Shown: positions 18,244-56,910, counted from the stretch's first letter. The stretch is 56,910 nucleotides of DNA from a virus (IMGVR_UViG_3300014208_000049:1-56910), one strand, 5' to 3'. Notes: generated by a model from the letters alone, not told the origin. Program-made: numbers and translations.

Positions 18244-18249
18244 ACAAAT

Positions 18250-18277
18250 ATGGTACCAATTTGGGGGTTCATGTCAA
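18250..18277 (-). promoter_or_regulatory. Sigma70 promoter for leader copy 2
   Basis: TTGACA-16-(TGn)TACCAT. Confidence 0.65.
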
Positions 18278-18328
18278 TTACTTTATTCTCCTGCGCTTTT
18301 TTTGCGGTTCTGCTTGGCGCGTTTCGCG

Positions 18329-31075: not shown

Positions 31076-31176
31076 GACAACAATAGAACATGGCATACTT
31101 CGGCAAAAAAGAGTTGACATCCTCGCCCCTTTGTGGTGTTAATGATGATACGTCATTAACCCACAAGGAGGCCGGG

Positions 31177-33061: not shown

Positions 33062-33570
33062 AGGATTGCTACAAAGACATCTTCGGGTGGTTCCCGGAGA
33101 GTAACGCGCAATACCTTGAGGACCTGATGGCGAGTCTGAACGCGAAATCGGTGATCGAGATCGGGAGCTTCCTCGGGAAGTCCACGACGTTCTTTGCGGC
33201 CAGGGTTGATCGCGTAACGGCGATAGACACCTTCAAGGGGAACGACGAGCACTACATGGGTACGGTGAAGTCCCTGATGCCGAATCTGTACGATGAGTAC
33301 CGAAGGAACACGGGCAAATTCGGAAATATCACTACGTTGGTAATGCCGTCCTTGGATGCCGCGAAATTGAACTTGGAGGCCGACCTGATCTACTTGGACG
33401 GGTCGCATAAGTACGGCGACGTGAAGGCCGACATTGAGGCATGGAGGGGGCGCGGGTTCCTTTGCGGCGATGATTTTCACTTTCCCGAGGTTCAGATCGC
33501 GGTAGAGCGGTTGATCCCCGGATATCACACCGATGGGAGGATGTGGAGTGAACCCCGCCCTCGCGCTTGA
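33058..33570 (+). CDS. Class I SAM methyltransferase (Methyltransf_24-like)
   Basis: IEIGSFLGKST, DLIYLDGSHKY, GDDF. Confidence 0.85.
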   Translation: MKDCYKDIFGWFPESNAQYLEDLMASLNAKSVIEIGSFLGKSTTFFAARVDRVTAIDTFKGNDEHYMGTVKSLMPNLYDEYRRNTGKFGNITTLVMPSLDAAKLNLEADLIYLDGSHKYGDVKADIEAWRGRGFLCGDDFHFPEVQIAVERLIPGYHTDGRMWSEPRPRA

Positions 33571-34057
33571 GGTCCTGTCGGAAGGGACAAAGTTGCTCGC
33601 CGACACTAATTGGTGGGTGTCTGCCGGCACAGCTCTCGGCGCCTACCGGGACGCCTTGAGCGACGAATTCTTGGCAAGGGACACGGACCTTGACGTGGAG
33701 GTCGAAGGGTACATCGACCTGAAGCCGATATTCATGGACAGCGGATTCAAGGTACACACGGAAGCGTCCGTTGGTCCCGTGAAGTGCCAACTAGCGCTTG
33801 TGAAGAATGGGATTATCTTCGACATCTATTTCTACACTCGCGGAGTAAGCGATTTCGTGAATTTCAGCGAGTTCGGGGCGGTGGTGGTTCCATCGCACCT
33901 GATCGACAACGCCAAAATCGTCAATGTCCGAGGCATCGACCTGCGCTTTCCGTCTCCGCCGGAGGAATATCTTGCGACTCGGTACGGGAAGGATTGGGCC
34001 ATCCCGCAACCGAAAAAGAATTGGTGGGAGCAAGCCGCCAACATGGTGCGACCATGA
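33548..34057 (+). CDS. LicD/fukutin-family phosphotransferase
   Basis: GTALGAYRD...DTDLDV...EEYLATRYGKDWAIP. Confidence 0.85.
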   Translation: MNPALALEVLSEGTKLLADTNWWVSAGTALGAYRDALSDEFLARDTDLDVEVEGYIDLKPIFMDSGFKVHTEASVGPVKCQLALVKNGIIFDIYFYTRGVSDFVNFSEFGAVVVPSHLIDNAKIVNVRGIDLRFPSPPEEYLATRYGKDWAIPQPKKNWWEQAANMVRP

Positions 34058-34434
34058 AGATCGGATTCACGGTCGGCGTATGGGACCTGCTCCATGAGGG
34101 GCATCGGATCTTCATGGGGAAGTGCCGCGGGGAATGCGACTATCTCGTCGTCGGCGTGATGACGGATTATTGGGTGAGGGTCCAGAAGGGACACGATCGG
34201 CCGAAAGAATCTCTCCAGAAGCGGATGGAAAACGTCAGGCCGTTCGCGGACAGAGTGATCGCAATCAACACCCTGAACATGAGGCACTACCTACAAATGT
34301 CGGATGTCTGGATCAAGTCCGTTGAGCAGAAGAATATGCTTCCCGAGGAGTGGCCGAATACGGTATGGTTGCCAAGAACTCCGGGTGTTTCAACGACGGA
34401 GATAATCGAAAGAAAAGAGGAGGCATCACAATGA
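34054..34434 (+). CDS. Cytidylyltransferase (TagD-like)
   Basis: FTVGVWDLLHEGH (HxGH), LVVGV, RTPGVSTT. Confidence 0.85.
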   Translation: MKIGFTVGVWDLLHEGHRIFMGKCRGECDYLVVGVMTDYWVRVQKGHDRPKESLQKRMENVRPFADRVIAINTLNMRHYLQMSDVWIKSVEQKNMLPEEWPNTVWLPRTPGVSTTEIIERKEEASQ

Positions 34435-35323: not shown

Positions 35324-36058
35324 ATGACCTTCACCGTCTACGACATCATCCGACTCGCGCTTCTGGACATCGGGGCGATCGCCAAGTCCGAGGCGTTGGA
35401 TGCCGACGAGTCGGCCGACGCCCTGAAGATCCTGAACATGCTCTTGGATGAGTGGTCCGCAGAAAGCACGATGGTGGTCGGGACGGTCATGGAGAGCCAG
35501 GTCCTCACGGCGAGCGATGGCACCTACACGATCGGAGCGTCCGGGGCGGACATTACATCGTCCAAACCGACCGCGATCACCGAGGCGTTCGTTCGGGACT
35601 CTGACAATAATGATTCCGTTGTGCGCGTAGTGACCTTGGGCGAGTGGAACTCCTACGGCGACAAGACCGGCACGGGGCGTCCTGAGTCGCTTTACTACGA
35701 TCCGGGGGCGACACAGCAGGCGGCGCACAAGGGAACGATCAATCTCTACCCTCTGCCCGACAGTTCGACCACGTACACGCTCTTCTTTGGTGGTCAGAAG
35801 CCCCTAACGGAGTTCTCGGCGGTCGCCAATGCGGTCACGCTCGCTCCGGCGTACCTGAGGGCATTACGGCTGAATTTGGCGGTGGATCTGTGGCCGGGGT
35901 ACTTCTCCGAGAAGGGCGCCCCGGTGCCGGATGCCATAAAGCGCGAGGCGCAGCGGGCGCGGGCCGTGATCGAGGCGATGAATTCCAAGCAGGTGATCTG
36001 CGGCATGGAGATACCCGGTCAAACTGGCGGTGGCTTCAACATCAACACGGGGGATTAA
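35324..36058 (+). CDS. P22 gp4-like head-tail adaptor
   Basis: DIIRLAL..IG....E.L...E..DAL..LNMLLDEW; GRPESLYY; LRLNLAV. Confidence 0.8.
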   Translation: MTFTVYDIIRLALLDIGAIAKSEALDADESADALKILNMLLDEWSAESTMVVGTVMESQVLTASDGTYTIGASGADITSSKPTAITEAFVRDSDNNDSVVRVVTLGEWNSYGDKTGTGRPESLYYDPGATQQAAHKGTINLYPLPDSSTTYTLFFGGQKPLTEFSAVANAVTLAPAYLRALRLNLAVDLWPGYFSEKGAPVPDAIKREAQRARAVIEAMNSKQVICGMEIPGQTGGGFNINTGD

Positions 36059-36061
36059 ACG

Positions 36062-37528
36062 GTGAAAATCCCGTTCGTCGGTGGCACTTACAACGCGGTA
36101 TCCGGTGCCATCGACGCCTCCCGTGCCATCAATTTTTACCCCGAAGTCTCCCAAGAAGATTCCAAGAGCGTCGTTTCCGTGATCGGGACCCCAGGGACGG
36201 CGCTTTGGGCCACGGTCGGGTCGGGTGTGATCCGCGGTCAGCACATTTTCAATTCCGTCATGTTCGTCGTGTCGGGAAACAAGTTGTATTCCGTGACGAC
36301 GGCGGGAGTAAGTACCGAATTGGGTACGCTTCAAACCTCGACCGGACCTGTTTCCATGAAAAACAACGGGTTAGCGTCGGCCGGCATCGGCGGGAATCAA
36401 CTGATCGTGGTAGACGGGACCGCCGGATACCTGTACAACGTGGCTACATCGGCGTTTTCGACCATTTCCGGGGGTGGATTTCCCGCCAATCCGGTCATGG
36501 CGGCGTACATGGACGGGTACTTCATCGTGTTCGGGTCGGGGAAAATGGCCTATGCTGTCAGCAACTTGTACGATGGTTCCACGTGGAACGCTCTCGCGAC
36601 GGCTTCGATCATCGCCTCGCCTGACGCCATCGTTTCGGTGATCTCCGCGCACAATCAGTTGTGGTTCCTGAAGAGTGAGACATCGGAAGTCTGGTACAAC
36701 GCAGGGACTCCGACCTCCCAGGGGTCGCCGTTCTCCCGAATCGCCGGTTCCGTGATCGAATTCGGCAACGCCGCCGCCTTCTCGGTGGCCCACGGCGCCG
36801 GGGCGGTATTCTTCCTCGGGAGCATCCGCGAAAATCAGGGGAGCAAGTTCGTCGGTGTCGTGAAATTGGCGGGTAACGTGCCGCAGGTCATATCCCCGCC
36901 GGCAATCAACTACCAGATCGGTCAATTTGCGACGATTTCGGACGCGATCGCGTACATGTACTCGGATTCCGGTCATCAGTTCTACGTCCTCACGTTCCCG
37001 ACCGCGAACGCGACCATCGTGTACGACGCGACGACGAATTTCTGGCACGAGCGGTCCACGTACATCGGTGGAGCGTCATCGGTGCGCCGGCACACGGGGA
37101 ACTGCTACGCATATTTCGCCGGAAAGCACCTGGTCGGCGACTATCGGGCGAACGGGAAGATTTACGAGATGTCCGCGGCGACCTACGACGACGCCGGGTA
37201 TGCGCTCACGTCAATCCGGCAGGCGCAGCACTTCGCCGACAAGAACGATGGCCGGCTGCTGTCGTATCACCGCCTGCATATTGACATCGAATCCGGTGTC
37301 GGGACGCAAACGGGGCAGGGACTCGATCCGCAGGCGGGCCTTTCGTGGTCGGACGACGGTGCGAAAACGTGGTCGAACGAATACTACAAGTCGATGGGCA
37401 AGATCGGTGAGTACAAGAAGCGGATGTCGTGGAAACGCCTCGGGGCGTCCCGCGATCGCATCTTCAAACTCACGATTTCCGACCCGGTAAAGCGCGTGAT
37501 CGTCGGCGCGTTCGCGGACATCACATGA
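36062..37528 (+). CDS. P22 gp10-like tail hub (packaged DNA stabilization protein)
   Basis: INFYPE, GTPG, MDGYF, SPDAIV, SEVWYN, WSDDG.KTWS. Confidence 0.9.
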   Translation: MKIPFVGGTYNAVSGAIDASRAINFYPEVSQEDSKSVVSVIGTPGTALWATVGSGVIRGQHIFNSVMFVVSGNKLYSVTTAGVSTELGTLQTSTGPVSMKNNGLASAGIGGNQLIVVDGTAGYLYNVATSAFSTISGGGFPANPVMAAYMDGYFIVFGSGKMAYAVSNLYDGSTWNALATASIIASPDAIVSVISAHNQLWFLKSETSEVWYNAGTPTSQGSPFSRIAGSVIEFGNAAAFSVAHGAGAVFFLGSIRENQGSKFVGVVKLAGNVPQVISPPAINYQIGQFATISDAIAYMYSDSGHQFYVLTFPTANATIVYDATTNFWHERSTYIGGASSVRRHTGNCYAYFAGKHLVGDYRANGKIYEMSAATYDDAGYALTSIRQAQHFADKNDGRLLSYHRLHIDIESGVGTQTGQGLDPQAGLSWSDDGAKTWSNEYYKSMGKIGEYKKRMSWKRLGASRDRIFKLTISDPVKRVIVGAFADIT

Positions 37529-38216: not shown

Positions 38217-38612
38217 ATGAAGCGATCTATCTGGTTGATCTTGGCTCTTGCTCTGATGGTGATTCCGATCTGCGCCTACGCAGGGCCGGATGTGTTCTCG
38301 GTCATGGGAGAATCCGAATCGAAGGATTACACCTTCGCGGCCGATGCCGCTGTCACGGTTCAAGCGGCGTTCGTGGCCGGCGGGGGAACGTGGCTGAAAA
38401 ACACCTCCCCCCCGAAAGCCGTCACCTTGCAACCCGAGACATACGGGATCCGAATCGGGTTCCAGCAGACGCCCTCCGTGGACAATGTTGGTACGGTGAT
38501 AACGGCAGGTTCTACCGGGCGGTGGGCCGGGGTGGACACGGTGGGGAATGCCTCGATCTGCAATTCGACGGCGGGCAGCAACGCCAAGGTCCACATCATC
38601 GTGGAGCGATAG
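38217..38612 (+). CDS. Hypothetical protein with signal peptide
   Basis: MKRSIWLILALALMVIPICAYA n/h/c regions with AYA cleavage site. Confidence 0.7.
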   Translation: MKRSIWLILALALMVIPICAYAGPDVFSVMGESESKDYTFAADAAVTVQAAFVAGGGTWLKNTSPPKAVTLQPETYGIRIGFQQTPSVDNVGTVITAGSTGRWAGVDTVGNASICNSTAGSNAKVHIIVER

Positions 38613-38615: not shown

Positions 38616-39725
38616 GTGAAACTCTGCCTCATACTTCCGCGGTACGGGGTCAGCATTCACGACCCCTGTTTCGCTCCGTTGGGGGTGCTCTACATCTCCG
38701 CGATGGCGAAGAAGTTGGGCCACGCGGTCGATTTCTTCAACCTGAATCTGCACGAATTCAAGGGCATCAAGTTCAAGGATTACGATGTGGTCCTGTTCAC
38801 CGGCGGCGATGAATTCTTGGAGCTCAACAAGGCCATGTCCGAGCAGGCGCGGGCGCAGGGCGTGAAGACCGTGATCGGCGGCGCACTCGCGACGTTCCGG
38901 TCGCAGGAGATGGCGCGGTACTTCGATTCCGTGGTGGCCGGAGAGGGCGAAGGAGTCTTGGCCGATGCGCTCGCGGAGGAAGGAATCTTCCAATGCCCAC
39001 CGATCCCATTCACCGAGATTCCGTGGCCCGACTACGAGGGCTTCGGCATCGACGAGTACCACAAGCGGCATTCGGTTCGTTACATGGGCGTGATGACCTC
39101 GCGTGGTTGCCCGTTCCGGTGCTCGTTCTGCGTCCAGACGTGCGCGTACCGAGAGCGACCGTTGGCCGACGTGTTCGCCGAGATAGACCATTATCGCGAG
39201 AAGTACAAGATCACGATGCTGGTGGTCTGCGACAACACCCTGAACGTGAAGAAGCCGCGCTTCATGGAGTTCTGCGACGGCATGGCATCGCGTGGATTGA
39301 AATGGTCCGCGGCGATTCGGACGGATCGGTTCGATGAACAGATGGCGGTCGCGGCGAAGAAGTCCGGGTGCGAATACTTCGTCGTCGGCGTGGAGTCGTT
39401 CGTTCAACGGCGCCTCGACATGATGGGGAAGAAGACGTTCGTTGCCGACAACGTGAGGACGCTTGACCTGCTCCACAAGCACGGGATCAAGTACCACGGG
39501 AATCTGCTCTTGGGATTCGAGGGTGAGTCGGTGACAGACATCATGGCCGAGTTCATGGCGGCCCCGAAGAAGTACAACGTGTTCCCGTCGCTCCTGCAAC
39601 CGTTCGCCGGCATCAAGGCGAAGCCGGGAATCTTCGGCAAGGACCGTGAAGTTCTGTCGCAGGCGTTCCATGAATTTGCGGAGTCGAAGGGGATGTCGTG
39701 CTACCCGGATGCCGTATGTCAATGA
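38616..39725 (+). CDS. B12-binding radical SAM protein
   Basis: PLGVLYI N-terminal cobalamin-binding domain; TSRGCPFRCSFC; GVES. Confidence 0.9.
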   Translation: MKLCLILPRYGVSIHDPCFAPLGVLYISAMAKKLGHAVDFFNLNLHEFKGIKFKDYDVVLFTGGDEFLELNKAMSEQARAQGVKTVIGGALATFRSQEMARYFDSVVAGEGEGVLADALAEEGIFQCPPIPFTEIPWPDYEGFGIDEYHKRHSVRYMGVMTSRGCPFRCSFCVQTCAYRERPLADVFAEIDHYREKYKITMLVVCDNTLNVKKPRFMEFCDGMASRGLKWSAAIRTDRFDEQMAVAAKKSGCEYFVVGVESFVQRRLDMMGKKTFVADNVRTLDLLHKHGIKYHGNLLLGFEGESVTDIMAEFMAAPKKYNVFPSLLQPFAGIKAKPGIFGKDREVLSQAFHEFAESKGMSCYPDAVCQ

Positions 39726-40168
39726 CGACGGTAACTGTCGCCACGGTCGAGGAGGCGAAGGCCATTTTCTTGCTCGCCAAGCAATACGATGGTGGCTTCT
39801 CCCGGCACGTCAAGGTGGACGTGGATTACGCTACCGGCGTGTGGATGAAGTGGTTGGAGAACGGTACGGGCATTGTTTTCGCGCTGAAGAAAGATGATCG
39901 GCTGATCGGCGGGCTTGGCGCGATCAAAGTGCCCGATATTCATTGTGGACTTCTCACGGCAATAGAGATATTTTGGTTCACAAATCCGGAGGACCGGGGA
40001 GAGGGACTTCGACTCTTGGATGCCTACGAAAAATGGGCGAAAATCTCCGGATGCAAAAGAGTTGCCATCATCCACCTCGCCGATTCCTTCCCTGAAGTGT
40101 TGTCGCGCATCTACGAACGCCGCGGGTATGAACTGATCGAATCGCATTACATGCGGGAGGTCTTATGA
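39716..40168 (+). CDS. GNAT-family acetyltransferase
   Basis: WFTNPEDRG.GLRLL..YEKWAK..G...YERRGY; position before ejection proteins. Confidence 0.8.
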   Translation: MSMTTVTVATVEEAKAIFLLAKQYDGGFSRHVKVDVDYATGVWMKWLENGTGIVFALKKDDRLIGGLGAIKVPDIHCGLLTAIEIFWFTNPEDRGEGLRLLDAYEKWAKISGCKRVAIIHLADSFPEVLSRIYERRGYELIESHYMREVL

Positions 40169-41058
40169 GCGTCATCTCTGGAATAATGCAATCAAGCGCC
40201 ACTGAAGATGCCGCCGCGACTGCGGCCGAAGCATCCAAGGACGCATCAGGGACTCAGTTGCAGATGTTCCGGGAGCAGCAGGCTTCGATGCAGCCGTGGC
40301 TCACGTCGGGTAGCAACGCCCTCGACCGCCTGAACGCGATGATGGGGTTGCCGAAGTATCAGAGTGGCAATGCTCTCGTTCCCGGAGGTGGCACCGCCCC
40401 TGTCGCCCCGACGAAACCGACGTTCAATTCAAACGTGTCGGAATTTATAACCCCTCCTGATCCTGACACCGGTTACGGAGGTGTAAGGAATCCCGCCTAC
40501 GCCGATTCTGCTTCGCAGATGGAAAAGTACAACGCGGATTGGGCCGACTATACACGCAAAATGGCCGAGTACAACGCCAAGGGCGGGGGCTTGGTCCCTG
40601 CTACGCAACCTGCCACGCAAACGCAATCGCAGGATTGGCGTTCCCTCATGGACCCCGGCTACGAGTTCCGCAAGCAGGAGGGGGTCAACGCTCTCGCGGC
40701 GGCGGGTGCGGCTTCGGGCAATTACGGCTCCGGGAACATGGGCGTTGCGCTTCAGGACTTCGGGCAGAACCTCGCATCCCAAGAGTTCCAGAACGTGTAC
40801 AACCGCTTGGCGGGCATGTCCGGCACGGGACAGGTGCAGAGTCAGCAGATGGGGAATCTTGGCGTGCAGACCGGCAACGTCATGGCGAACTATTTGAACC
40901 AGGCGGGCCAGAACATCGCCCAAGGACAAGTCGCCGGGGCGAACGCGATGGCCGGCGGAGTGCGCGATCTCGAAAAGGGAATCGCATCGTACTACATGTA
41001 CAAGCAACCGGCCGCGGATTACATCTCCCAAGATCAATTCAATGCGCTCTGGGTGTAG
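40165..41058 (+). CDS. DNA ejection/pilot protein (gp7-like)
   Basis: QPWLTSG..AL, DPGYEFR..EG, SG....ALQ.FGQNLAS.EF; Gly/Ala/Gln rich. Confidence 0.8.
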   Translation: MSVISGIMQSSATEDAAATAAEASKDASGTQLQMFREQQASMQPWLTSGSNALDRLNAMMGLPKYQSGNALVPGGGTAPVAPTKPTFNSNVSEFITPPDPDTGYGGVRNPAYADSASQMEKYNADWADYTRKMAEYNAKGGGLVPATQPATQTQSQDWRSLMDPGYEFRKQEGVNALAAAGAASGNYGSGNMGVALQDFGQNLASQEFQNVYNRLAGMSGTGQVQSQQMGNLGVQTGNVMANYLNQAGQNIAQGQVAGANAMAGGVRDLEKGIASYYMYKQPAADYISQDQFNALWV

Positions 41059-43059: not shown

Positions 43060-46059
43060 ATGCCTCAGTTCGCGGGAATGCCGGAGGGGGCGGAAGTAGT
43101 CAAGTACGCCGGTATGCCCGAAGGCGCGGAAGTCATCGACGAGAAGGATGTAACTGCGCCCCCCGCACGCTCCCTGAGGGCGTTGCCTCGGGACTTGGCG
43201 CATAGCGCGGATGTCCTCGCCGGCGGACTTGTGAAGGGGACAGCGAACCTTGCCGCGATGGGACCGGATGCCATTGCGAGTGCGCTCGAATCGCTTGGCG
43301 TACAGCGCGTGGCCGATTGGATCAGCGAGAAGACGGGCGTCAACCTCGGGAACGTATCGCAACATCCCTTGAGGGCGGACAAGGTTACGAAGACCCTCAT
43401 GCCGAATCCTCCCGTACCGGAGACGATGGGTGAGAAGATCATCGAAGGCATCGGTGAGCAGATTCCCGCGATGGTCATCCCCGGCGTTGCCGCCGAAGCG
43501 TACCTCGCCCCGAAGTTGGGGCAGATTCCGAAACTTATCGAGGCGGCGAAAGTTGCGGGAAAGACGGCCTTCGGCGCGGGAACAGCGTCAGGTATCGCTC
43601 GCGAAGCCGCCCCTGATTCACCGGGCATCGACCTTGCCGCGCAAATTGCGGGCGGTGTTGCAATCGGCAAAGGCCCTGATCTGTACCGCAAGGGTCAGCA
43701 GGCGTTCTCTGCACTAAGGCGTGGTGCTCCATCCGTGACGGAGGGCCAGTTGCGGACGAAGGCCGGTCAAACCCTGAACGAGATTTCCGGCACATCGGAA
43801 ATATACGACCAGAATGCCGCCGCCGCAACGAAAATAGAGGAGGCAATTCCAGGATTCAAGGCCACGATCGGCGAGAAGACGAACGACCCAGGACTAATCA
43901 AGAAGCAGCGGTCACTTGAGGCGGGTCCCGATAAAACCGCCGCCGAACTGATGGCGGAGAAGAAAGCGGTCAACCAAGTTGCGGTGAAGGATTATCTTGC
44001 CAACGAGTTCAAGGGTGACGAGTCGATAGATGAAGTGATCGACGCGCTGAACACGAAGAAAAAAAACATCGAAAAGACGGTCGGATGGATGCAGGGCGAG
44101 GCCGATCAGGCGCGGGAAGCGTTGCCGGTCGCGGGGAAGCAGGAGTCCGGGCAAGCGGCGGTTGCGGCGATCGAAGAGGCGCGGGCACCGCTGAAGGCGA
44201 AGAAGGATGTTCTCTACGCCGAAGTGGGCAATCCACCCGTGCAGACATCGGCGACGAAAGAGGCCGTGAAGTCCTTGGAAGCGGAGTTCACTCCCGGCGA
44301 GGAGGCTGTGTACCCGTCGGGAATCATCGCGAAGATCAAGAAGGTGCTGAAGGGGAAGGTCACGGATGCGGAACCGTTGCCGCCGGGAACCGAGGCACCC
44401 CCGCCGAATCCAAAGGTCGCCGAACGCGCAGAGAAACTTGCGAAGAAGGGCCTTGAGACGGCGTTCTCGCGATACGGGAAGCAGAAGATCAAATTGACCG
44501 ATGACATCGCCGTGGTCTTGAAGGAGAAGCAGCAACGCAATCTCTACAAACTGTTCGATAAGGATGGCCGCGTGACGTGGGACACGGTGGCGAAGGAGTT
44601 GGCCGAAGAAGGTGAGATTCCGGGTTTCGCCGCTGGCGAGAAGATTGACCAATCGACGTTCGTGGAGTGGTTGCAATCGAATCCCGTCCTCGGGCGAAGC
44701 AAGGACGTGTACGCCGACCGATTGGCGAAGGCTACGGCCCGCGTCAGCGCGGCAATGTCCGACATTGGTGAGCGTGGATTTCAGGAGTTGCACTCGCTCC
44801 GGAAGGACATCGGGCGGCAGATATCGGATGCCGTGACGGGTGCGAACCCGAACATGCCGATGGCGCGGAGACTGTACTCGTTGAGGAATGCGATCGACGC
44901 CGACATCGAGGCCGCACTTGGCGGCGAAAACGCCTACCAAGTGGCGCGAGACTTCGCCCGCGAATACTACCTGAAGTTCCGGTCGGGGGCGGTCGGGAAG
45001 GTGCTTCAGAGGGGTGGTCAGGCGAGCGGTCGCGCCGTCCCGGACGCACAGATCCCAGGCAAGTTGTTCACGATTGACGGGGCCGATGATTTCATCCGCG
45101 CCGTGGGGCAGGAGAATGCCGCCACGGTAATGCGTCAGCACGCGGCCGAACTGCTGATGGAATCCGGCGCCGTGAACAAACTCACGAACGAGATCAACAC
45201 GAAACAGTTCGCGACGTGGGTAAATCGGAATCGTCGGGTGCTGGAGAAATTCGGCATCCAAGACGACTTCGCCAACGTCCGTGACGCCTACGTGGCGCTC
45301 GACGATCTCAAGGCGATGCAGGTCGAATTCGGCAAATCGGTCGCGTCGAAGTTGCTGAACGCCGATCCCGACAAGGCGATCAAGGCCGCCATGCAGGGGG
45401 CCGAGGGCATCAGCGGGAAGAATACCGGCGAGACGATGCGGCGACTGATGGGTCAACTGAAGGATGCCGATGGCGTGATCGACAAGAAGGCCCTGCTCGG
45501 ATTGAAGAATGCGTTCAAGGATTTCATCATCTCCGAGGCCGAAACGACTGCGAAAACGGTCGCCGGGGACCAGATAATCAGCCCCGCGGGAATCCTCAAG
45601 AACATGAAGAAGTACGAGCCGGCCATGCGTATCCTGTACAACGATGAGCCGCAAAAACTGGACGCCCTGCTGAACGTGCAGAAGGCGATCGAGATTCAGG
45701 CGCGGTCGCTGAAGTCCCCGGTCGGAGGAGGGTCCGATACCTTCGAGAAGTTGTCGATGGCCCAAGGCGTTATGAGCAGGGTACTCGACCGCATTCCTGG
45801 CCTCTCGTACACCGGGAGGCTTGCCCGCGCCGGGCTAAAATTAGTCAGCAATCTGAACGAGTCGGAGTTGAATAAGTTGCTTGCTCGTGCTATGTACGAC
45901 CCTGAACTGGCGCAAACGCTGATGATGGCGGCGAAGAATCAGGCTCCGAAGGAAGTGGCGCGTAGGATCAACAATCAGCTCGTAATCTTGAGCCTTGGCG
46001 TGACGGCGAACAAGAAGGGCGAAGAAGAAGAGATCCCCACGGAGGTCCCCGGCCCATGA
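43060..46059 (+). CDS. Large DNA ejection protein (gp16 position)
   Basis: 999-aa helical protein; synteny; AGMPEGAEV duplicated at the N-terminus. Confidence 0.65.
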   Translation: MPQFAGMPEGAEVVKYAGMPEGAEVIDEKDVTAPPARSLRALPRDLAHSADVLAGGLVKGTANLAAMGPDAIASALESLGVQRVADWISEKTGVNLGNVSQHPLRADKVTKTLMPNPPVPETMGEKIIEGIGEQIPAMVIPGVAAEAYLAPKLGQIPKLIEAAKVAGKTAFGAGTASGIAREAAPDSPGIDLAAQIAGGVAIGKGPDLYRKGQQAFSALRRGAPSVTEGQLRTKAGQTLNEISGTSEIYDQNAAAATKIEEAIPGFKATIGEKTNDPGLIKKQRSLEAGPDKTAAELMAEKKAVNQVAVKDYLANEFKGDESIDEVIDALNTKKKNIEKTVGWMQGEADQAREALPVAGKQESGQAAVAAIEEARAPLKAKKDVLYAEVGNPPVQTSATKEAVKSLEAEFTPGEEAVYPSGIIAKIKKVLKGKVTDAEPLPPGTEAPPPNPKVAERAEKLAKKGLETAFSRYGKQKIKLTDDIAVVLKEKQQRNLYKLFDKDGRVTWDTVAKELAEEGEIPGFAAGEKIDQSTFVEWLQSNPVLGRSKDVYADRLAKATARVSAAMSDIGERGFQELHSLRKDIGRQISDAVTGANPNMPMARRLYSLRNAIDADIEAALGGENAYQVARDFAREYYLKFRSGAVGKVLQRGGQASGRAVPDAQIPGKLFTIDGADDFIRAVGQENAATVMRQHAAELLMESGAVNKLTNEINTKQFATWVNRNRRVLEKFGIQDDFANVRDAYVALDDLKAMQVEFGKSVASKLLNADPDKAIKAAMQGAEGISGKNTGETMRRLMGQLKDADGVIDKKALLGLKNAFKDFIISEAETTAKTVAGDQIISPAGILKNMKKYEPAMRILYNDEPQKLDALLNVQKAIEIQARSLKSPVGGGSDTFEKLSMAQGVMSRVLDRIPGLSYTGRLARAGLKLVSNLNESELNKLLARAMYDPELAQTLMMAAKNQAPKEVARRINNQLVILSLGVTANKKGEEEEIPTEVPGP

Positions 46060-47474
46060 CGTTCCGCAAATCGAAGTTCTGGTCGCTCCTGCTCGCGCAT
46101 CTCTTCTTCCTCGCCGCGCTCGGTATTCATCCCGTCGTCATGCCTCCGACCGCCGATGCTGCGACCCAAAGCATCCTGCCTTACCCGCGGTTCAAGGCGT
46201 TCGTGACCGGGACCAGTGACCCTCTGGCCGGCGGGAAACTTTACACGTACCTGCCGGGGACCACGACTCCGACGACGACGTACACGACGAGCGCGGGGAC
46301 CGTGGCGAACGCGAATCCGGTGGTCCTGGATGCCAACGGGGAAGCCGATGTGTGGTTCACGGGGACGATCAAGCTCGTCCTCGTGGACTCCGCCGACGTG
46401 ACCGTTTGGACGAAGGATAACGTCGGCGCGGTGGGATCTTACGGTTCCCTCACCGGCGACTCCACCGGCAACATCAGCGGCTTCGACAACGGTACGTTCA
46501 CGGGGCGCGTGACGACGGCTACGCTTACGGTATCCGGCACCCCTACCTTTACCGACAACACGGTCAACGGTGCGGACCTAATAGACAACACGATTACTTC
46601 CGCGAAGATCCTCGACAACTCCATCGCGTCATCGAAGATTCTGGATAACACGATTGCCGCTGGAAAGTTGGCCGCTTCCGGTACCGCATCCAACTCCACG
46701 TATCTTCGGGGTGACGGTACATGGGGCACTCCTTCCATCACCACGTCCACCACTATTCTCAGCGCGTACAAGGGATTGACGATCACGACCCCGGCCGACA
46801 ATCAATCCGTCACCATTACCGCTGATCAGGTGGTCGCGGTGGACAACACGAACACGGCGCGGATTCTATCCACCGTATCCCTCACGGTCAACTTGGACGT
46901 TGCCGGAGCAAACGGGTTAGATAACGGGACCATCGCCGCGAACACGGGGTACTTCCTGTACGTCATCGACAACGGTGCGACCACGGCGGGGCTTGCATCC
47001 ACTTCTGCGACCGATCCCGTGATGCCGTCCGGGTACACGTACAAGGCGTTGGTCGGGTGGTGTACGACGGACGCGACGGCAACCCCGTTCAACATTGCGG
47101 AGTTCACGATTGTGGACGATCTCTATACGTGGGCGGTGGCACAGAAGGTTGCGAACGACGCTGGCGGCGACCACAACACCACGACGATGAACCTTGCGGC
47201 GGGTGGTGCGATGACCTACGCGGCTGTACCGCCAAGCATCACAAAGAGCGTCTTCGGGAAAATGTCCATCTATCAGGGGCCGGGAATCCTGTACTCGAAT
47301 CCCACCACCTTTTCGGACGGCGCGAACGCATCGACGGTCATATCCGATGACTCGGCGGGCGGAGAGTATCCGTACTCTTTCTTCCTCCCGATAATCGAAA
47401 GCCAGACGTTCTACTACAAGGGCGCAAATTCCTCGTTCGACATTTGGATTTCCGGTTTCACTTTAAAGAGATAA
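46056..47474 (+). CDS. Tailspike/fibre with head-binding-type domain and N-terminal signal peptide
   Basis: PLAGGKLYTYLPGTTTP..TY...NANPVVLDANGEA; 10-aa (I/L)DNxIxxxK repeats; TYLRGDGTW. Confidence 0.8.
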   Translation: MTFRKSKFWSLLLAHLFFLAALGIHPVVMPPTADAATQSILPYPRFKAFVTGTSDPLAGGKLYTYLPGTTTPTTTYTTSAGTVANANPVVLDANGEADVWFTGTIKLVLVDSADVTVWTKDNVGAVGSYGSLTGDSTGNISGFDNGTFTGRVTTATLTVSGTPTFTDNTVNGADLIDNTITSAKILDNSIASSKILDNTIAAGKLAASGTASNSTYLRGDGTWGTPSITTSTTILSAYKGLTITTPADNQSVTITADQVVAVDNTNTARILSTVSLTVNLDVAGANGLDNGTIAANTGYFLYVIDNGATTAGLASTSATDPVMPSGYTYKALVGWCTTDATATPFNIAEFTIVDDLYTWAVAQKVANDAGGDHNTTTMNLAAGGAMTYAAVPPSITKSVFGKMSIYQGPGILYSNPTTFSDGANASTVISDDSAGGEYPYSFFLPIIESQTFYYKGANSSFDIWISGFTLKR

Positions 47475-47484
47475 GGAGACCCCC

Positions 47485-48759
47485 ATGCGTAAACTTTTCC
47501 TCACCCTGTTCCTGATCCTCCTCGCGGCGTGGGCTTACGCCGAGAATCCGTTCAACGTGATCGGCGGTGGCGGCTCCACCACCCTCACCACCGGCTCCGT
47601 CACCTCGGCGCATATCCTCGACAACACGATCGTGGGCGGGGACATCGCGGACAATGCGGTGAACTTGCGGCACGTGAAGTTCGTCGCGGACGACAACAGT
47701 TACTCCGTATTCGAGCAGCCATCCGGCAACAGGATTATTTTAACGCATTATTCCGCCGACAATGTTGCATTGGGAAAGTTGCGGTTTTATTCGACCGGTG
47801 AGGTCTACCTTGGCGGGTCGGATAATACGGGCGCTTCCGTGGGGTACCTGGACTTCACTACTACCGCCACGTATCTGTTAGCGGAAGCGGGTAGATATCT
47901 AAGTCTTTCCGGCGACAACGTGGCTGTTGCCTCCGGCGTCCCCTTCATTTCCGATAACGTCCAGATCACCGGCGGGTCGATCACCGGGGTGACGGGGGTG
48001 GGCACCGTTACCGGCCCCGCTACCGCGACGGAGGATTACGTAGTCACATGGGGCGCGGATAACGTGTCGATCAAGGACGGCCAGATTCCGCTGTCGGCGT
48101 TGGCTACGCTGGCCTCCCCCACGTTCACGGGTACGGTGACCGCCCCGAAGGTGGTCGTCGCGGGCACCGATGGCGGCACGATAGACAACACGGTGATCGG
48201 CGGCACGACCGCGTCGGCGGGTACGTTCACGACGGTGACGGCAGACGAGTTCGTTTCCTCTGCGGCTAACGGGACCCATAAGGGTAACGTGGCAAACTCC
48301 GGGGCGGCTTCCAATCTGACTACCGCCGGGGATTACGCGTACAACCTGACGACAGGCGCACTCACCATTTACGACAACACGATTGCCGACAACGTGATAC
48401 TGGTGCGGGCGGTCAAATCAAAGTCCTTCGGTTGGGACAACGCGGCGGCTACCGATGACGGTATCTTCCTCGGAGCGGAGTGGAGTCCGGTCGCCTCGAC
48501 GCTGATCTCCATTAAATGTTTCGCGTCTACCGATAACGTAGTCGGATTTATGAGCGAGTGCGCCGCCGACAACAATGCCTCGTGCGTGAGGGTAGACGAT
48601 ACCGACTGGACGATCACGAATGCGGAGGCGGGAGTGACCGTGTTGGCGGCTGATTTTGAGAACGCGGCTATCGCTGCGGGTGCATCGCTGAAATGGGATA
48701 CAACGTCCGTAGGTGCGGCAAGTAACCGGTTTTCCTGCACGATCAGGTATCGGGAGTAG
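47485..48759 (+). CDS. Tail fibre-like protein with signal peptide
   Basis: LASPTFTGTVTAP and IDNTVIGGTT..AGTFTT fibre motifs; MRKLFLTLFLILLAAWAYA. Confidence 0.75.
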   Translation: MRKLFLTLFLILLAAWAYAENPFNVIGGGGSTTLTTGSVTSAHILDNTIVGGDIADNAVNLRHVKFVADDNSYSVFEQPSGNRIILTHYSADNVALGKLRFYSTGEVYLGGSDNTGASVGYLDFTTTATYLLAEAGRYLSLSGDNVAVASGVPFISDNVQITGGSITGVTGVGTVTGPATATEDYVVTWGADNVSIKDGQIPLSALATLASPTFTGTVTAPKVVVAGTDGGTIDNTVIGGTTASAGTFTTVTADEFVSSAANGTHKGNVANSGAASNLTTAGDYAYNLTTGALTIYDNTIADNVILVRAVKSKSFGWDNAAATDDGIFLGAEWSPVASTLISIKCFASTDNVVGFMSECAADNNASCVRVDDTDWTITNAEAGVTVLAADFENAAIAAGASLKWDTTSVGAASNRFSCTIRYRE

Positions 48760-48762
48760 CCC

Positions 48763-49530
48763 ATGCGAAACGCCATCTATCGCATCCTGCAAGGGATCAT
48801 CCTCCTCGCGGTCGCGTCCTCGTTCGCGCAGGCTGACGACTTCATGTACTTCAAGAAGAAGGCGGCGGGGGGGGGAGGAGCGGCACCGCCTACATACCTT
48901 GCCTCCGAATCGTTCGACAACTCAGTGGGGTACGATAGAGCGTGGACTGTTGTTGGGGGAACGCCAGATCCAGATTATACGGACAACGTGTTGGAGGGGA
49001 CACAATCCCTCGAAATGGCAGTAAAGACCGACGCGGAAACCAAGGAATTATATACAGCATTTACCCCCACTGATGGTCAAGCGCAGGAGATATATTTCTT
49101 AATTAAGTATCCTTATATTGGCACCACTACTACGGATTATACTGTTTTCGACCTCAAGGACGCAGGAGGAAATAACGTATCCAGAGCGTATGTGTCCAGG
49201 GGGGGTGGAACTGCAAAATTCAAAATAACCTCTGTGGGCGGGACAGCAGGAACAACTGTCGGAACAATAACAGACAATGTTGTGTACCATGTATGGATAA
49301 GATACTTAAAGGGTGGGGGAGCGGATGCATTCTCTTCTATAGCGTTTTCAACCGACGGAGTTAGGCCAGCCTCCGGCAATAATTACGCGGAGTCTACAAA
49401 TGGCACGTCCACGGCAAATGCCACCAGATTGCAATTGCGGTTAACTTATGGTGCACCCACGTCATCGTGCGATGCGATATTTGACAAAATCAGGGTAGAT
49501 GACGCCACTATCGGGGACAACCCATCGTGA
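48763..49530 (+). CDS. Beta-sandwich/lectin-like protein with signal peptide
   Basis: AQA cleavage site; beta-rich; ends FDKIRVDDATIG; low GC. Confidence 0.65.
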   Translation: MRNAIYRILQGIILLAVASSFAQADDFMYFKKKAAGGGGAAPPTYLASESFDNSVGYDRAWTVVGGTPDPDYTDNVLEGTQSLEMAVKTDAETKELYTAFTPTDGQAQEIYFLIKYPYIGTTTTDYTVFDLKDAGGNNVSRAYVSRGGGTAKFKITSVGGTAGTTVGTITDNVVYHVWIRYLKGGGADAFSSIAFSTDGVRPASGNNYAESTNGTSTANATRLQLRLTYGAPTSSCDAIFDKIRVDDATIGDNPS

Positions 49531-51491
49531 GGGGTATACTTGCGTCGATCGTCCTTGTTTTGTTTGCGGTTGTGGCTGATGCCGCATGGACGCCGATAAT
49601 CGGGATTCCAGAACCGCCTTTTGGTATCAACGAAACGGCTACCGCAGTTCCTTCACCGTGGGATACGGAGACAGGAGGGTTTTATTATATCAACTATTTA
49701 ACCGGCGACGACACCGGAAGAACTTACGGTACTCCCTCCGCTCCGCGCCAGACCATTCCCCATACAATTCCGGCGGGGTCTGTTGTTGAGATACATGGGG
49801 CCACTTACGACGAAGGTGGAACGTTGAGCATAACAGCAAACGGATCGGCGGATAATGCAGTATTTATTCGCAGTACAAGTTACGCTGACAGGACGCAAGT
49901 AACGAATCAACTGTATCTTTACGGTACTTATGTAATTGTAGAGAATCTGCACTTCGGTTCTCAAGACAACGCGAATACTACTTTAGGCGTAAGAATACCA
50001 AATACATCAGGGCAAAGTAATATTGTTATAAGAAACTGTGAATTTTCTGGTAACGACATAAAGACTGGCGGCGTTGGCGTTGGGAGTTGGGGTTATCATA
50101 TCGCCGATAACTCGGTATCCAATGTTGTATTGGACAACCTTTACATTCACGATTTAGGAAAACTTGTGTTGGGTGTAGATACTGACGCTCACGGAGTGGG
50201 GTTAGCGGGAGTAATAGACAATCTGTGGTTGACCAACAGTACAATTAATGACTGCATTGGGGATGGTATACAGATTGAAGCACAAAGCACCTACAGGGAC
50301 AGGATACACCATGTCTACATAGGGAAAAACGACATCCATGACGTAAAGCAGAATACGGTGTGGATTAAACACGCCACAGACGTAGTTGTGTCTCAAAATA
50401 CGTTGCACTCACAACAAAAGGTAGATGCTTACTCTGGCGGTGGTGTAGCGGGGTGGCAATATGGACCCGAATATGTGTGGTTTTTAGCGAACGAGATATA
50501 CGATGCTGAAATGGGAATTAATTCAGGGAGTGGTGATCCCCCTGGAGATGGCTTGTATCAGTATATTATTGGAAACCTGATCTATAACATTCATTCCACA
50601 GATAAAAGCACAAGCGGATCTGGTGCAATGATGTTGCGTGGAGGAACCAATATAGCAATCATAAATAATACTATGTACGATTATGATTCTGGGATAAACA
50701 TGGCCAGTGACGGCAGGGTGTTGTCCATAACCAATAATATATTTTCCAACAGGGCAGACAATACAGTAAACGACATATACATGGAGGGGGCGACTTCATC
50801 TTCTAACTCAACCGTGGATAATTGTGTCTTTTATAATTCGGGGGATATAAGAATTTCGTGGAACGGTTCGCAGTATACAAGTCTGGCCGCGTTCCAGTCT
50901 GCAACGGGGAAAGGCGGCGGGTCTATTTCGGCAGACCCTTTATTCACAAACGCCACGGACAATAATTTTACGTTATCGGTAGGCTCACCTGCAATTGATA
51001 GTGGGGTAGTATCCGCCGCCTATCAGACGTTCTTCGACCGCTACGGTATTGACATACAGGAGGACATCGCAGGAACTACGCGACCACTCGGAGGGGTGTG
51101 GGATATCGGAGCATACGAGTCTGGAGGGATAGACTCCACCCCCGCCGCCTTCTCCTTCACCGACGTAACCGGCGCGACTCTATCGACCGTCACGACCTCG
51201 GACAACGTAACCGTAACGGGTATCGACAACACGACCACGCTGACGCTGACCGGTACGGGTTGCGAGTATTCCATCAACGGTGCGGCGTTCGCCACGGCGG
51301 ACGATAACGTGACGCTGAACGACAACGTGGCCCTGCGCGTAACGAGTAGCGCGTCCCACAACACGGCGGTGTCGTGCGTACTCAACATCGGCGGGGTAAC
51401 GGATACGTGGTCTGTGACGACATTGGCGGCGGTCGCTGACCCGCAGACGCCCCGATTCCGGGGTAGTTCAATGAGCGGAGGGTGGAGATGA
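49527..51491 (+). CDS. Right-handed beta-helix (depolymerase/adhesin-like) protein with signal peptide
   Basis: Repeated N.I/N.L stacks, DGIQI, ADPLF...FTL...SPAIDSG...DIGAYE; Ig-like tail; low GC. Confidence 0.8.
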   Translation: MRGILASIVLVLFAVVADAAWTPIIGIPEPPFGINETATAVPSPWDTETGGFYYINYLTGDDTGRTYGTPSAPRQTIPHTIPAGSVVEIHGATYDEGGTLSITANGSADNAVFIRSTSYADRTQVTNQLYLYGTYVIVENLHFGSQDNANTTLGVRIPNTSGQSNIVIRNCEFSGNDIKTGGVGVGSWGYHIADNSVSNVVLDNLYIHDLGKLVLGVDTDAHGVGLAGVIDNLWLTNSTINDCIGDGIQIEAQSTYRDRIHHVYIGKNDIHDVKQNTVWIKHATDVVVSQNTLHSQQKVDAYSGGGVAGWQYGPEYVWFLANEIYDAEMGINSGSGDPPGDGLYQYIIGNLIYNIHSTDKSTSGSGAMMLRGGTNIAIINNTMYDYDSGINMASDGRVLSITNNIFSNRADNTVNDIYMEGATSSSNSTVDNCVFYNSGDIRISWNGSQYTSLAAFQSATGKGGGSISADPLFTNATDNNFTLSVGSPAIDSGVVSAAYQTFFDRYGIDIQEDIAGTTRPLGGVWDIGAYESGGIDSTPAAFSFTDVTGATLSTVTTSDNVTVTGIDNTTTLTLTGTGCEYSINGAAFATADDNVTLNDNVALRVTSSASHNTAVSCVLNIGGVTDTWSVTTLAAVADPQTPRFRGSSMSGGWR

Positions 51492-51781
51492 GGTATCTGG
51501 CAATTCTGCTTCTGTTGGTCGCGGGGAGCGCGTGGGGGGAAGTGCATTATCACATCGAGAGTAACTCGCCTGACCCGTCCGTGCGGTCCCGTCCCGACTG
51601 CGAATCCATCGGGTACGTTCATGCGTGGGAGGACACGACGCCGAACGTCGTCTACACCGTAATATGCCCGGAGGATTATCCCGGTTGCGGTTCGCCCAAT
51701 CGGTCAAGGATGTGCCTTAATTGCGGCAAGCGACAGGTCAAGCCTAAACCCACGCCGCATCTGTGGGAGGATGTGAAGTGA
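51488..51781 (+). CDS. Small Cys-rich protein with signal peptide
   Basis: MRYLAILLLLVAGSAWG; C....HAW...C..C..CLNCG. Confidence 0.6.
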   Translation: MRYLAILLLLVAGSAWGEVHYHIESNSPDPSVRSRPDCESIGYVHAWEDTTPNVVYTVICPEDYPGCGSPNRSRMCLNCGKRQVKPKPTPHLWEDVK

Positions 51782-52203
51782 GGGAGTCCTTCCCCACCGC
51801 CATTGATTTCGTCCTCGCGCACGAGGGCGGATATAGTCTCGATTCTTCCGACCCCGGCGGCGAGACGAATTTCGGCATCTGTAAGCGGTCCTATCCGAAC
51901 GAGGACATCGCCGGGATGACGGTTGGCCGGGCTAAGGAAATCTACTTCGCGGACTACTGGTCGCCGATTGCGGACGCGCTTCCATCCCCCGCCGATTTCG
52001 TGGCGTTCGATGCGGCGGTCAATCAGGGGCTTGGATTCGCCCGGAAGATGGTCGCCGATTGCGGAGCGGACGCGGACGCCATGCTGTTCTACCGACTGAA
52101 GAAATACTCGGCTATCGTCGCGGCGCGTCCCACGTCGCTGAAATACCTGCGCGGGTGGATGAACCGGATCATCGCGTTACACGACAAGATGAAGGAGGCT
52201 TAA
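51778..52203 (+). CDS. Glycosyl hydrolase family 108 endolysin
   Basis: HEGGYSLDSSDPGGETNFGI, FDAAVNQG, GWMNRI. Confidence 0.9.
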   Translation: MRESFPTAIDFVLAHEGGYSLDSSDPGGETNFGICKRSYPNEDIAGMTVGRAKEIYFADYWSPIADALPSPADFVAFDAAVNQGLGFARKMVADCGADADAMLFYRLKKYSAIVAARPTSLKYLRGWMNRIIALHDKMKEA

Positions 52204-56203: not shown

Positions 56204-56910
56204 TCATTTCTTCCACTCCCCGACCACCGTCACCTTGCGGCACCGAACTTTCGTGATGTCCGTGGCGTACACGACGATATCCTTCCGCGCCACGCGGCAC
56301 TCCAATACCCTCCCGTCGTTGTATCTCAACGCATCCTGCGGCGTGGGCGACAGGTGCAACCCGCCGCCGCATTGACGGGTCTTGTCGGGGTCGAAATCAG
56401 GGCAAACGACTTCACCCTCATATTTAATCTGGCCCGTATGGAAATCGCAGAGGGTATCGGGGCGCACGGATTTATAGAGGGTCAGCGGCTTATTTCCGTC
56501 GCCGAAAATTTCACAGAACGATTTGACCGAGTGTTGGAAAGTTTTCGTGCGGACCACGGTGACGCCGGTTCCGTGGCGCTTGATAGAGGGCTTGCAGTCT
56601 TGACAGATTATGCTGACGTAATGGTATGCCTCGATTTTTACGTTGTTCGACAATGAGCGGACAGAGCAGTTTTCGTGCGCCTTTACCTGCGACGATCCCC
56701 ACATCTCGCCGACCTGCGATGATTCCCGCATCACGCCGACCTGCGACGATCCCCGCATCTCGCCGACCTGCGACGAGTCCCACATCACGCCGACCTGCGA
56801 CGATCCCCGCATCACGCCGACCTGCGATGATTCCCGCATCACGCCGACCTGCGATGATTCCCGCATCACGCCGACCTGCGACGATCCCCGCATCTCGCCG
56901 ACCTGCGATG
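56204..56910 (-). CDS. 3' part of the origin-spanning repeat protein (DUF7666-like C-terminal domain)
   Basis: Repeats, then LYKSV...CGGGLHLSPTP..AL.Y...KVRC. Confidence 0.85.
   Translation of the reverse strand, partial: SQVGEMRGSSQVGVMRESSQVGVMRESSQVGVMRGSSQVGVMWDSSQVGEMRGSSQVGVMRESSQVGEMWGSSQVKAHENCSVRSLSNNVKIEAYHYVSIICQDCKPSIKRHGTGVTVVRTKTFQHSVKSFCEIFGDGNKPLTLYKSVRPDTLCDFHTGQIKYEGEVVCPDFDPDKTRQCGGGLHLSPTPQDALRYNDGRVLECRVARKDIVVYATDITKVRCRKVTVVGEWKK
56685..56910. repeat. 27-bp tandem repeat (same array as 1-175)
   Basis: About 8 consecutive units. Confidence 0.95.

Follow-up and report, generated by a model that had tools for sequence, protein, structure and literature searches.

An excess of Asp-Asn dipeptides in a mobile cassette of phage fibre genes with signal-peptide-like starts

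Right-handed parallel beta-helices of the pectate-lyase-like type contain Asx-turns and an asparagine ladder at short turns. The general O-glycosylation motif of Bacteroidota is D-(S/T)-(A/I/L/V/M/T), and the Campylobacter-type N-glycosylation sequon of PglB is D/E-x-N-x-S/T. Virion receptor-binding proteins with signal peptides are unusual. In this study, the ordered dipeptide Asp-Asn (DN) was analysed in four open reading frames (ORFs) of a short-tailed phage of the P22 type, IMGVR_UViG_3300014208_000049:1-56910. The whole stretch of 56,910 bases, which is the entire record of this genome, is referred to as the window. The four ORFs lie between the ejection-protein and lysis genes, which is the usual tailspike position in such phages, and their products are numbered proteins 1 to 4.

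All four proteins are encoded on the plus strand and have a signal-peptide-like N-terminus with one or two basic residues, a hydrophobic core and an A-x-A-like end; such starts were called here using our own heuristic and by eye. In protein 1 (472 amino acids, 46056..47474), the signal-like extension (residues ~1-35) is directly followed by a tailspike head-binding domain (~39-120) and then by a shaft and a distal part. Protein 2 (424 amino acids, 47485..48759) has a shaft and a C-terminal jelly-roll tip (~308-424) with four Cys residues. Protein 3 (255 amino acids, 48763..49530) is the shortest, and protein 4 (654 amino acids, 49527..51491) contains a right-handed, depolymerase-like beta-helix (~21-535) and a C-terminal beta domain (~536-654). 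The closest described relatives of protein 1 by domain and gene place are the tailspikes of Xanthomonas phage PBR31, Rhodoferax phage P26218, Vibrio phage VvAW1, phage DSL-LC05 and one uncultured record, which share the head-binding domain and the same position among the genes. Unlike protein 1, these podovirus tailspikes start directly with the head-binding domain, without a signal-like extension, and have no DN excess.

Size and specificity of the Asp-Asn excess

DN occurs 10, 14, 4 and 12 times in proteins 1 to 4, respectively, giving 40 in 1805 amino acids, which agrees exactly with the count in the original prediction, whereas the expected numbers are 1.77, 1.85, 0.86 and 3.67. The pairs begin at residues 121, 144, 167, 177, 187, 197, 248, 263, 289 and 305 of protein 1; at 46, 56, 70, 92, 113, 144, 157, 192, 234, 297, 302, 318, 350 and 362 of protein 2; at 52, 74, 171 and 252 of protein 3; and at 109, 147, 194, 203, 231, 411, 431, 478, 559, 567, 593 and 599 of protein 4. 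When each protein was shuffled at constant composition, the observed number was reached in 0 of 20000 shuffles for proteins 1 and 2, in 0.52% for protein 3, and in 0.02% for protein 4. For the four proteins pooled, the composition-shuffled dipeptide test gives 8.1 expected DN against the 40 observed (z = 12.0), a number that was reached in 0 of 3000 shuffles. DN is the most extreme of the 400 dipeptides in the pooled set, where the runner-up has z = 3.8. These results confirm that the DN enrichment is real and very strong.

The excess is specific to the order and to the identity of the two residues. In protein 2, 14 of the 27 Asn residues follow Asp and the reverse dipeptide ND is absent, as had been predicted; in proteins 1 to 4, ND occurs 1, 0, 0 and 5 times, 6 in all. 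The four proteins contain 3 EN against 2.4 expected, 1 DQ against 2.4, 10 DG against 13.5, and 11 NG against 12.1. The coat protein and the 488-amino-acid protein encoded at 36062-37528 contain no DN, as the original prediction stated, where 1.34 and 0.99 were expected, and the other 50 ORFs of the phage (13,488 amino acids) contain 29 against 27.5 expected, which is no excess.

Asp and Asn make up ~7% and ~6% of these proteins, respectively, and a few of the DN sites lie in 10-residue repeats; on these grounds, the excess could be ascribed to chance, to overall or general loop composition, or to the inheritance of one repeated segment. We give this explanation a negligible probability, considering the pooled shuffles described above and the fold-matched controls described below, which show no excess. 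A general loop composition would need ND, DD, NN, DG and NG to be raised, and none of them is raised; an artefact of composition or of loop composition is therefore rejected by the shuffles and by the related dipeptides at expectation. The 10-residue period is found only at residues 177, 187 and 197 of protein 1 and at residues 46 and 56 of protein 2, so that the pairs are indeed not confined to repeats. In addition, the 21 metagenomic homologues of protein 2, each with a signal-peptide-like start, are all rich in DN (255 where 42.6 were expected). Their excess is as large in the remainder of the sequence, which is mosaic and largely non-homologous (143 against 24.5), as it is in the conserved tip (92 against 15.7), and the 143 sites of the remainder fall in 122 distinct 8-residue contexts. 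The inheritance of one conserved domain or repeat is rejected because the variable remainder is equally enriched.

The 40 DN pairs are encoded by GACAAC (22), GATAAC (8), GACAAT (7) and GATAAT (3), approximately as in the general codon usage, and all 22 GACAAC hexamers of the region are in frame, which indicates that the bias acts at the amino-acid level. A cause at the DNA level, such as selection for or against a nucleotide word, a mutational process, or a diversity-generating retroelement with its AAC-rich targets, is highly improbable. It would be in keeping with the share of GACAAC among the codon pairs, with the single C-to-A change that converts D-T to D-N in the genetic code, and with a weak match of protein 1 to the second domain of Mtd (E = 0.0022, under the family cut-off). 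However, all four synonymous codon pairs are used in proportions close to the codon usage, GACAAC occurs in frame only, and neither DN nor D-T deviates from expectation in the 50 remaining ORFs of this genome. No template/variable repeat pair is present near 46-51 kb among the 8 repeat families found, and the reverse transcriptase family PF00078, which was found in 3 control genomes, gave 0 matches in the contig, whose completeness is estimated (CheckV-type) as 83%, so that a gene off its end is possible. A DNA word and a retroelement are rejected on the basis of the codon pairs, the in-frame hexamers, and the lack of a repeat pair and of a PF00078 match.

Spread, conservation and fold-matched controls

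The DN excess recurs in a phage that is otherwise unrelated. G001, a complete phage genome of 62 kb, has no coat, portal or other core gene in common with the window, and it shares protein 2 (74% identity), the middle of protein 1, the start of protein 3, and the C-terminal domain of protein 4 (88%). Since the fibre genes match while the coat and portal of the window do not, the search can be considered to have worked and G001 to be unrelated. Among the 47 called ORFs of G001, the excess is found only in the four fibre ORFs, with observed and expected numbers of 10/2.9, 4/0.6, 13/1.6 and 10/1.2. The heuristic flags a signal peptide in two of these four; in the other two such a start was recognized by eye, in one case only if an internal Met is taken as the first residue. 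L017 and L018, which are fragments of related P22-like phages, and other short contigs gave observed and expected numbers of 14/1.9, 4/0.8, 5/0.6, 15/2.6, 11/1.8 and 9/1.5. As had been proposed, the DN bias is thus confined to proteins with signal-peptide-like starts: the other 50 ORFs of the window phage show no excess, and the excess in G001 is limited to the fibre ORFs.

In 420 kb of the genome bin that holds the contig, 71 signal-peptide-like ORFs contain 44 DN against 50.3 expected, and no general bias was found in 370 ORFs. The DN bias travels with a mobile set of fibre genes, a cassette whose products have signal-peptide-like starts. The signal-like start of protein 3 and the residues that follow it recur beside fibre genes in L001 and L010-L013; these relatives of protein 3 hold 0-1 DN, except the L001 copy, which holds 4 against 0.67 expected. 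Directly upstream of the fibre cassette of G001 lies an ORF of 4156 amino acids (6433-18903, of which L001 2-8596 is a part) with 3 DN against 8.0 expected; by eye, parts of it are methylase-like and helicase-like.

The pairs are also better conserved than their surroundings. In seven pairs of aligned proteins (51-88% identity), DN was kept at 12/14, 11/14, 10/10, 5/9, 4/4, 9/13 and 5/7 of the aligned sites, that is, 56-100%, while other dipeptides of the same seven pairs were kept at fractions of 0.65, 0.33, 0.50, 0.31, 0.79, 0.32 and 0.35. DN is therefore kept about twice as well as other dipeptides. In 20 aligned homologues of protein 2, D302, D318, N319 and D350 do not vary, and at least 90% of the sequences retain N303 and N351.

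The fold-matched controls gave a different result. The 150 best homologues of protein 4 (31-52% identity) contain 605 DN against 653 expected, with a median observed/expected ratio of 0.94 and 0-4 DN in the closest ones. Most of these beta-helix homologues also start with signal peptides, and nevertheless they have no DN bias, which indicates that export as such does not bring it about. At the eight beta-helix DN columns of protein 4, the ten closest homologues read VS, NS, DH, YN, RN, AG and so on. The C-terminal domain of protein 4 also occurs in large bacterial proteins; 534 such copies are depleted in DN, with 44 where 160 were expected, and the four DN columns of this domain read NT/NA, NT/NA, GT and DT/QT. 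Five phage records have the head-binding domain of protein 1, and nine of their tailspike or neighbouring proteins contain 17 DN against 13.6 expected. DN as a general property of beta-helices, of the C-terminal beta domain or of tailspikes is rejected by these controls. The enrichment accordingly persists after control for beta-turn preference, where the original prediction had seen a possible refutation, and fold relatives of the same types are without excess.

The occurrence of DN in unrelated folds, which had been noticed from the sequence, holds for the beta-helix, the C-terminal beta domain, the jelly-roll tip and the shafts. These comparisons show that DN was gained convergently in folds whose other members lack it. 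The convergent gain, together with the higher retention than that of other dipeptides, supports the earlier suggestion that the pairs are selected.

Turn position of the motif and the readings of its function

The sequence context of the pairs was determined from 318 sites in 28 proteins of the gene pool, which give the motif D-N-[V/T]-[V/I/T]. The position after Asn favours V (4.8 times background) or T, and the next one V (3.3 times), I (2.8 times) or T; the flanks and further positions are almost uninformative. In the four proteins, DN is mostly followed by V, T, A, S or G, as predicted (V 12, T 10, S 4, A 4 and G 3, or 33 of 40). DN-[AILVMT] accounts for 28 of the 40 sites, where 3.6 were expected (z = 13.3), and for 280 of 357 DN in a set of 32 DN-rich proteins, consisting of those of the window, L001, L011, L017, L018 and P0002-P0022.

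When mapped onto structures predicted with AlphaFold2 (AF2), the pairs sit in turns, which could be seen in the model of protein 4 and in the tip of protein 2. The model of protein 4 has a mean predicted local distance difference test (pLDDT) score of 84.6, mostly above 90 up to residue 535 and poor in the C-terminal domain. According to the DSSP assignment of this model, all 12 DN pairs are in turns or loops. Asn stands directly before a strand at residues 232, 479, 560, 594 and 600, three of which are in the poorly modelled part; it is one residue from a strand at 110, 195, 204 and 432 and two residues from it at 1 site, and the remaining 2 sites are in longer loops. At 203/204 and 431/432 (pLDDT > 90), a two-residue turn joins two strands, with Asp as the final residue of the first strand and Asn as the first residue of the turn. 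Homologues conserve the Asn of the 203 site (25 of 57) and of the 431 site (35 of 57), and they often have Gly in the Asn columns of 147 and 478. In the tip of protein 2 (pLDDT ~70-83), the DN pairs at 297, 302, 350 and 362 are located at hairpin turns or strand starts.

On this basis, there is in our estimate an even chance that D-N-[V/T]-[V/I/T] was selected in this fibre gene pool for a structural role, as a motif that forms a turn, starts a strand and is maintained by purifying selection. The motif would make a tight turn that caps and initiates a beta-strand, where the backbone of Asn would occupy a glycine-like, positive-phi position of the turn; the preceding Asp would act as a side-chain cap through hydrogen bonds, and the beta-branched residues after Asn would open the next strand. 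The preference might arise from the need for a rigid nucleation of turns in fibres that are rich in beta-structure and probably trimeric, and that would have to fold without the help of cytoplasmic chaperones once exported through Sec. Asn deamidates slowly in N-V/I/T contexts, and the motif may keep Asn in such contexts. The commonest exchange partner of DN is DG, which accounts for 6 of the 29 listed changes, and this exchange fits an Asn in a glycine-like turn conformation. That EN and DQ are at expectation and ND occurs only 6 times in all fits a stereochemical role of the Asx residues. A structural role is also favoured because no enzyme travels with the motif.

The asparagine ladder of the pectate-lyase-like helices is the nearest described structural counterpart. 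As in a ladder, Asn 204 and Asn 432 of protein 4 are in two-residue turns between strands, with a conserved Asn column, a likeness seen at these two of its 12 sites, and D and N are not replaceable by E or Q in the fibre proteins. However, the preceding Asp does not belong to the classic ladder, and the homologues of protein 4 have Y, W, R, K or H there. In addition, most of the DN sites are not conserved in the fold family, and the motif also occurs in the jelly-roll tip, the C-terminal beta domain and the shafts.

Several observations weigh against the structural role. A purely structural motif is expected in fold relatives as well, and these gave observed/expected values of 605/653, 44/160 and 17/13.6 instead, so that some pressure special to this gene pool is left unexplained. 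Only 15 of the 176 DN of 57 aligned homologues are on the DN columns of protein 4. The model of protein 2 has a mean pLDDT of 57.7, and 6 of its 14 DN pairs lie in regions below 50, where they cannot be placed. The dipeptides usually found in turns, DG and NG, are not depleted, nor has DN taken their place. The tripeptide D-T-[AILVMT] is nearly absent from the 32 DN-rich proteins, with 7 against ~54 expected by our own arithmetic, and a simple turn model does not predict this depletion; D-S-[AILVMT] is at expectation (31) in the same set, and D-T-[AILVMT] is common (680) in the 150 fold-matched controls. Finally, a structural role does not explain why only this gene pool uses DN so heavily. 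At residue 599 of protein 4, where the phage has DN, the homologous domain copies mostly have DT or QT.

The original prediction proposed that the pairs are recognition sites for a periplasmic or phage-encoded modifying enzyme, or Ca2+-binding turns. Of this proposal, the selection and the location in turns stand, whereas a phage-encoded enzyme is unlikely and the Ca2+ motifs tested are absent. There is a small probability that DN-[V/T/A/I] is a recognition site for a modification directed at Asn, for example glycosylation, which would take place after export through a host-encoded enzyme. The confinement of the bias to signal-peptide-like proteins in two unrelated phages, its convergent gain in the beta-helix, C-terminal beta domain, jelly-roll tip and shafts, the strict residue specificity, and the position of the sites in turns and loops are all consistent with such a role. 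The third position is A, I, L, V, M or T at 28 of 40 and 280 of 357 sites, which is the residue class of the Bacteroidota O-glycosylation motif, and the strong depletion of D-T-[AILVMT] points in the same direction. The genes for a weakly LicD-like, a cytidylyltransferase-like and a methyltransferase protein form a cluster inside the structural operon, which also contains genes for a B12-binding radical-SAM protein and a GNAT acetyltransferase.

On the other hand, we know of no Asn-modifying enzyme with D at the -1 position. The fibres of G001 are DN-rich without the candidate enzymes: no tblastn match with E ≤ 1e-3 was found in G001 to the radical-SAM, GNAT, methyltransferase, cytidylyltransferase-like, LicD-like or phrog_1574 genes of the window. 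Since G001 is equally DN-rich, a phage-encoded modifying enzyme is unlikely. A co-occurrence of the bias with phage-encoded enzymes is seen in kin of the window phage, L017 and L018, where a radical-SAM gene lies beside the fibre genes, and fails in the unrelated G001. The lack of bias in the signal-peptide-like ORFs of the bin and in the beta-helix homologues, most of which start with signal peptides, is also unfavourable to a recognition site, and the invariant DN within the compact tip domain looks structural. Shine-Dalgarno-like cores precede 20 of the 38 genes of the window, which argues against a Bacteroidota host, because Bacteroidota make weak use of Shine-Dalgarno sequences.

The known glycosylation rules do not describe the pairs, as the original prediction had recognized: [DE]-x-N-x-[ST] occurs 4 times against 2.2 ± 1.5 expected, and D-[ST]-[AILVMT] 5 times against 12.0. 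Its statement that N-x-S/T sequons are also frequent did not hold, because the 29 found against 23.1 ± 4.3 expected correspond to the composition level. A classical N-x-S/T or D/E-x-N-x-S/T sequon is rejected on these counts. The pairs resemble the PglB sequon in that an Asn with a nearby acidic residue occurs in proteins with export signals, but the acidic residue is at -1; the residue two before Asn is acidic at only 2 of the 40 sites, and the position two residues before the Asp is I, G, S, A or T and never acidic. There is no preference for S/T at +2, since x-S/T follows DN at 7 of 40 sites, which is the composition level for proteins with 19-24% of S and T.

The likeness to the Bacteroidota O-motif is closer, with three residues, Asp in the first place, the same class in the third, and a presumed action on exported proteins. 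However, the middle residue is Asn instead of Ser/Thr, so that the linkage would be N-linked or of another chemistry, D-[ST]-[AILVMT] is low in the four proteins, and no glycosyltransferase or oligosaccharyltransferase is linked to the DN motif. It is conceivable, but rather doubtful, that DN-[V/T/A/I] is the acceptor of a new Asn-directed modification, an N-linked counterpart of the O-motif, which a host envelope enzyme would attach to Sec-exported fibres that join the particle at lysis; the sites would then have accumulated to coat the receptor-binding proteins.

It is also improbable, and slightly more so, that the DN turns are sites for a metal such as Ca2+ or for another ligand, which would stiffen the fibres or bind the host surface along their length. 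The carboxylate of Asp and the carboxamide of Asn are common Ca2+ ligands, the fibres probably fold outside the cytoplasm, and the tip of protein 2 resembles CBM6, CBM35 and CBM36, some of which bind Ca2+, with Z-scores of 7-8 that are near background. However, the patterns GGxGxDxUx of RTX repeats, D-x-[DN]-x-[DN]-G, D-x-D-x-DG and cadherin D-x-N-D-N gave 0 matches each in the four proteins. The flanks beyond +2 are almost uninformative, with no further acidic ligand enriched, and 40 separate sites in four folds are many for specific metal sites. The probability left over from the readings named here is assigned to other causes.

The literature searches made here found nothing on a DN motif or on signal peptides of tail fibres, and on that basis the DN signal appears undescribed. 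A five- to six-fold excess of one ordered dipeptide that was gained independently, is better conserved than its surroundings and is confined to one cassette is a rare signal. If the motif is structural, it would provide a short rule, transferable to other proteins, by which extracellular fibres obtain stable beta-turns, and its sequence could serve to recognize this fibre gene pool in metagenomic data. As a modification site, it would represent a new code of protein modification and a new layer of phage-host interaction. In either case, the receptor-binding proteins are seemingly exported before they join the virion, which is odd biology.

Fibre proteins, neighbouring genes and genome context

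The N-terminal regions point to an export of the fibres, which would be incorporated into the particle only at lysis. The signal-like starts are encoded at 46056-46170, 47485-47550, 48763-48840 and 49527-49590 in the window and lie at 8691, 10001, 11271 and 12029 in L001. They are directly followed by a domain that is normally found at the very N-terminus of phage fibres, namely the head-binding domain in the window and what we take, by eye, to be an Mtd_N-type start in L001. For protein 1, the ATG at 46056 is preceded by GGAGG. Residues 56-114 match the chain 7eeq_A, "Tailspike head-binding domain", with E = 4.5e-07, and residues 43-98 match tail spike chains of 9vyg with E = 3.4e-04. The head-binding domain gave 12 tblastn matches at the N-termini of phage tailspikes, including the podoviruses named above.

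The fold of the protein 2 tip in the AF2 model matches XepA, YomS and phage fibre tips with Z-scores of 8.3-9.0, which are close to the stated background of the tool, and a profile search of protein 2 against solved structures gave 0 matches at E ≤ 1. Alignment scans with protein 2 found 5 metagenome and 2 genome loci, mostly short. The tip residues Cys 345, 359, 367 and 418 (48517-48519, 48559-48561, 48583-48585 and 48736-48738) are invariant in 20 homologues, which fits disulfide bonds made outside the cytoplasm. Protein 3 has no match in Pfam, PHROG or NCBIfam. Protein 4 matches Pfam Beta_helix (E = 8e-10), and the Foldseek matches of its model are GH136 lacto-N-biosidases, PL6 lyases, chondroitinase B and phage depolymerases; its sequence search against solved structures gave 0 matches. 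Its homologues have a signal peptide followed by the same W-x-P-P-I-G-I-P start. The search of the ESM Atlas returned viral clusters only, with scores below 0.9.

Two small proteins with signal-peptide-like N-termini, both on the plus strand, seem to travel with the fibre cassette. The first (131 amino acids, 38217..38612) has one DN and 61% identity to an ORF of G001 (~22805-23185). The second (99 amino acids, 51482..51781) is Cys-rich, directly follows protein 4, and has 80% identity over 99 residues to G001 (~1007-1300); it contains no DN, where 0.20 were expected. The two products are perhaps assembly or attachment factors.

The structural genes of the window include those for a P22-like portal (26034-28367), the P22-like coat (29840-31075), an SU10-type adaptor (35324-36058), the 488-amino-acid protein at 36062-37528, which is a head-closure Hc3 protein, and a DNA-ejection protein (40165-41058); a GH108 endolysin is encoded at 51763-52203. 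At 38616-40168, inside the late structural operon and just 5' of the ejection proteins, a B12-binding radical-SAM gene overlaps a GNAT acetyltransferase gene. Relatives of this radical-SAM protein (27-28% identity) adjoin DN-rich fibre genes at L017 5654-6925 and L018 2-1336, both of which are kin of this phage. Between the coat and the adaptor, a cluster at 32345-34434 encodes a phrog_1574 protein, a Methyltransf_24 methyltransferase, a weak LicD-type ORF and a cytidylyl/adenylyltransferase-like protein. The match of the LicD-type ORF (cholinephosphotransferase Mf1) has E = 2.7e-06 and is below the cut-off. The term "GT/LicD cluster" in the original prediction thus fits this group of genes only loosely, in its weak LicD-type member and its nucleotidylyltransferase-like, methyltransferase and phrog_1574 neighbours.

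Several HNH endonuclease genes are found in the early region at 1214-1933, 4909-5592, 6509-7393 and 17556-18332, and their DNA is repeated at 65-75% identity (families D2-D4). A further HNH_3 gene at 31090-31983 directly follows the coat gene.

The contig also sits in a genome bin of 1.3 Mb and 29 contigs labelled Patescibacteria group bacterium, in which C21 has 784 kb and C18 has 267 kb. The G+C contents are alike, with 0.56-0.58 for the large contigs of the bin and 0.576 for the phage; the bin may represent the host, or a similar composition alone may have placed the contig in it. Tandem repeats of 27 bases are present at both ends of the window (1-255 and 56621-56902), within one ORF of repeated nine-residue units. 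The ends of the contig therefore fall inside a single repeat-bearing gene, which suggests a circularly permuted or wrapped assembly.

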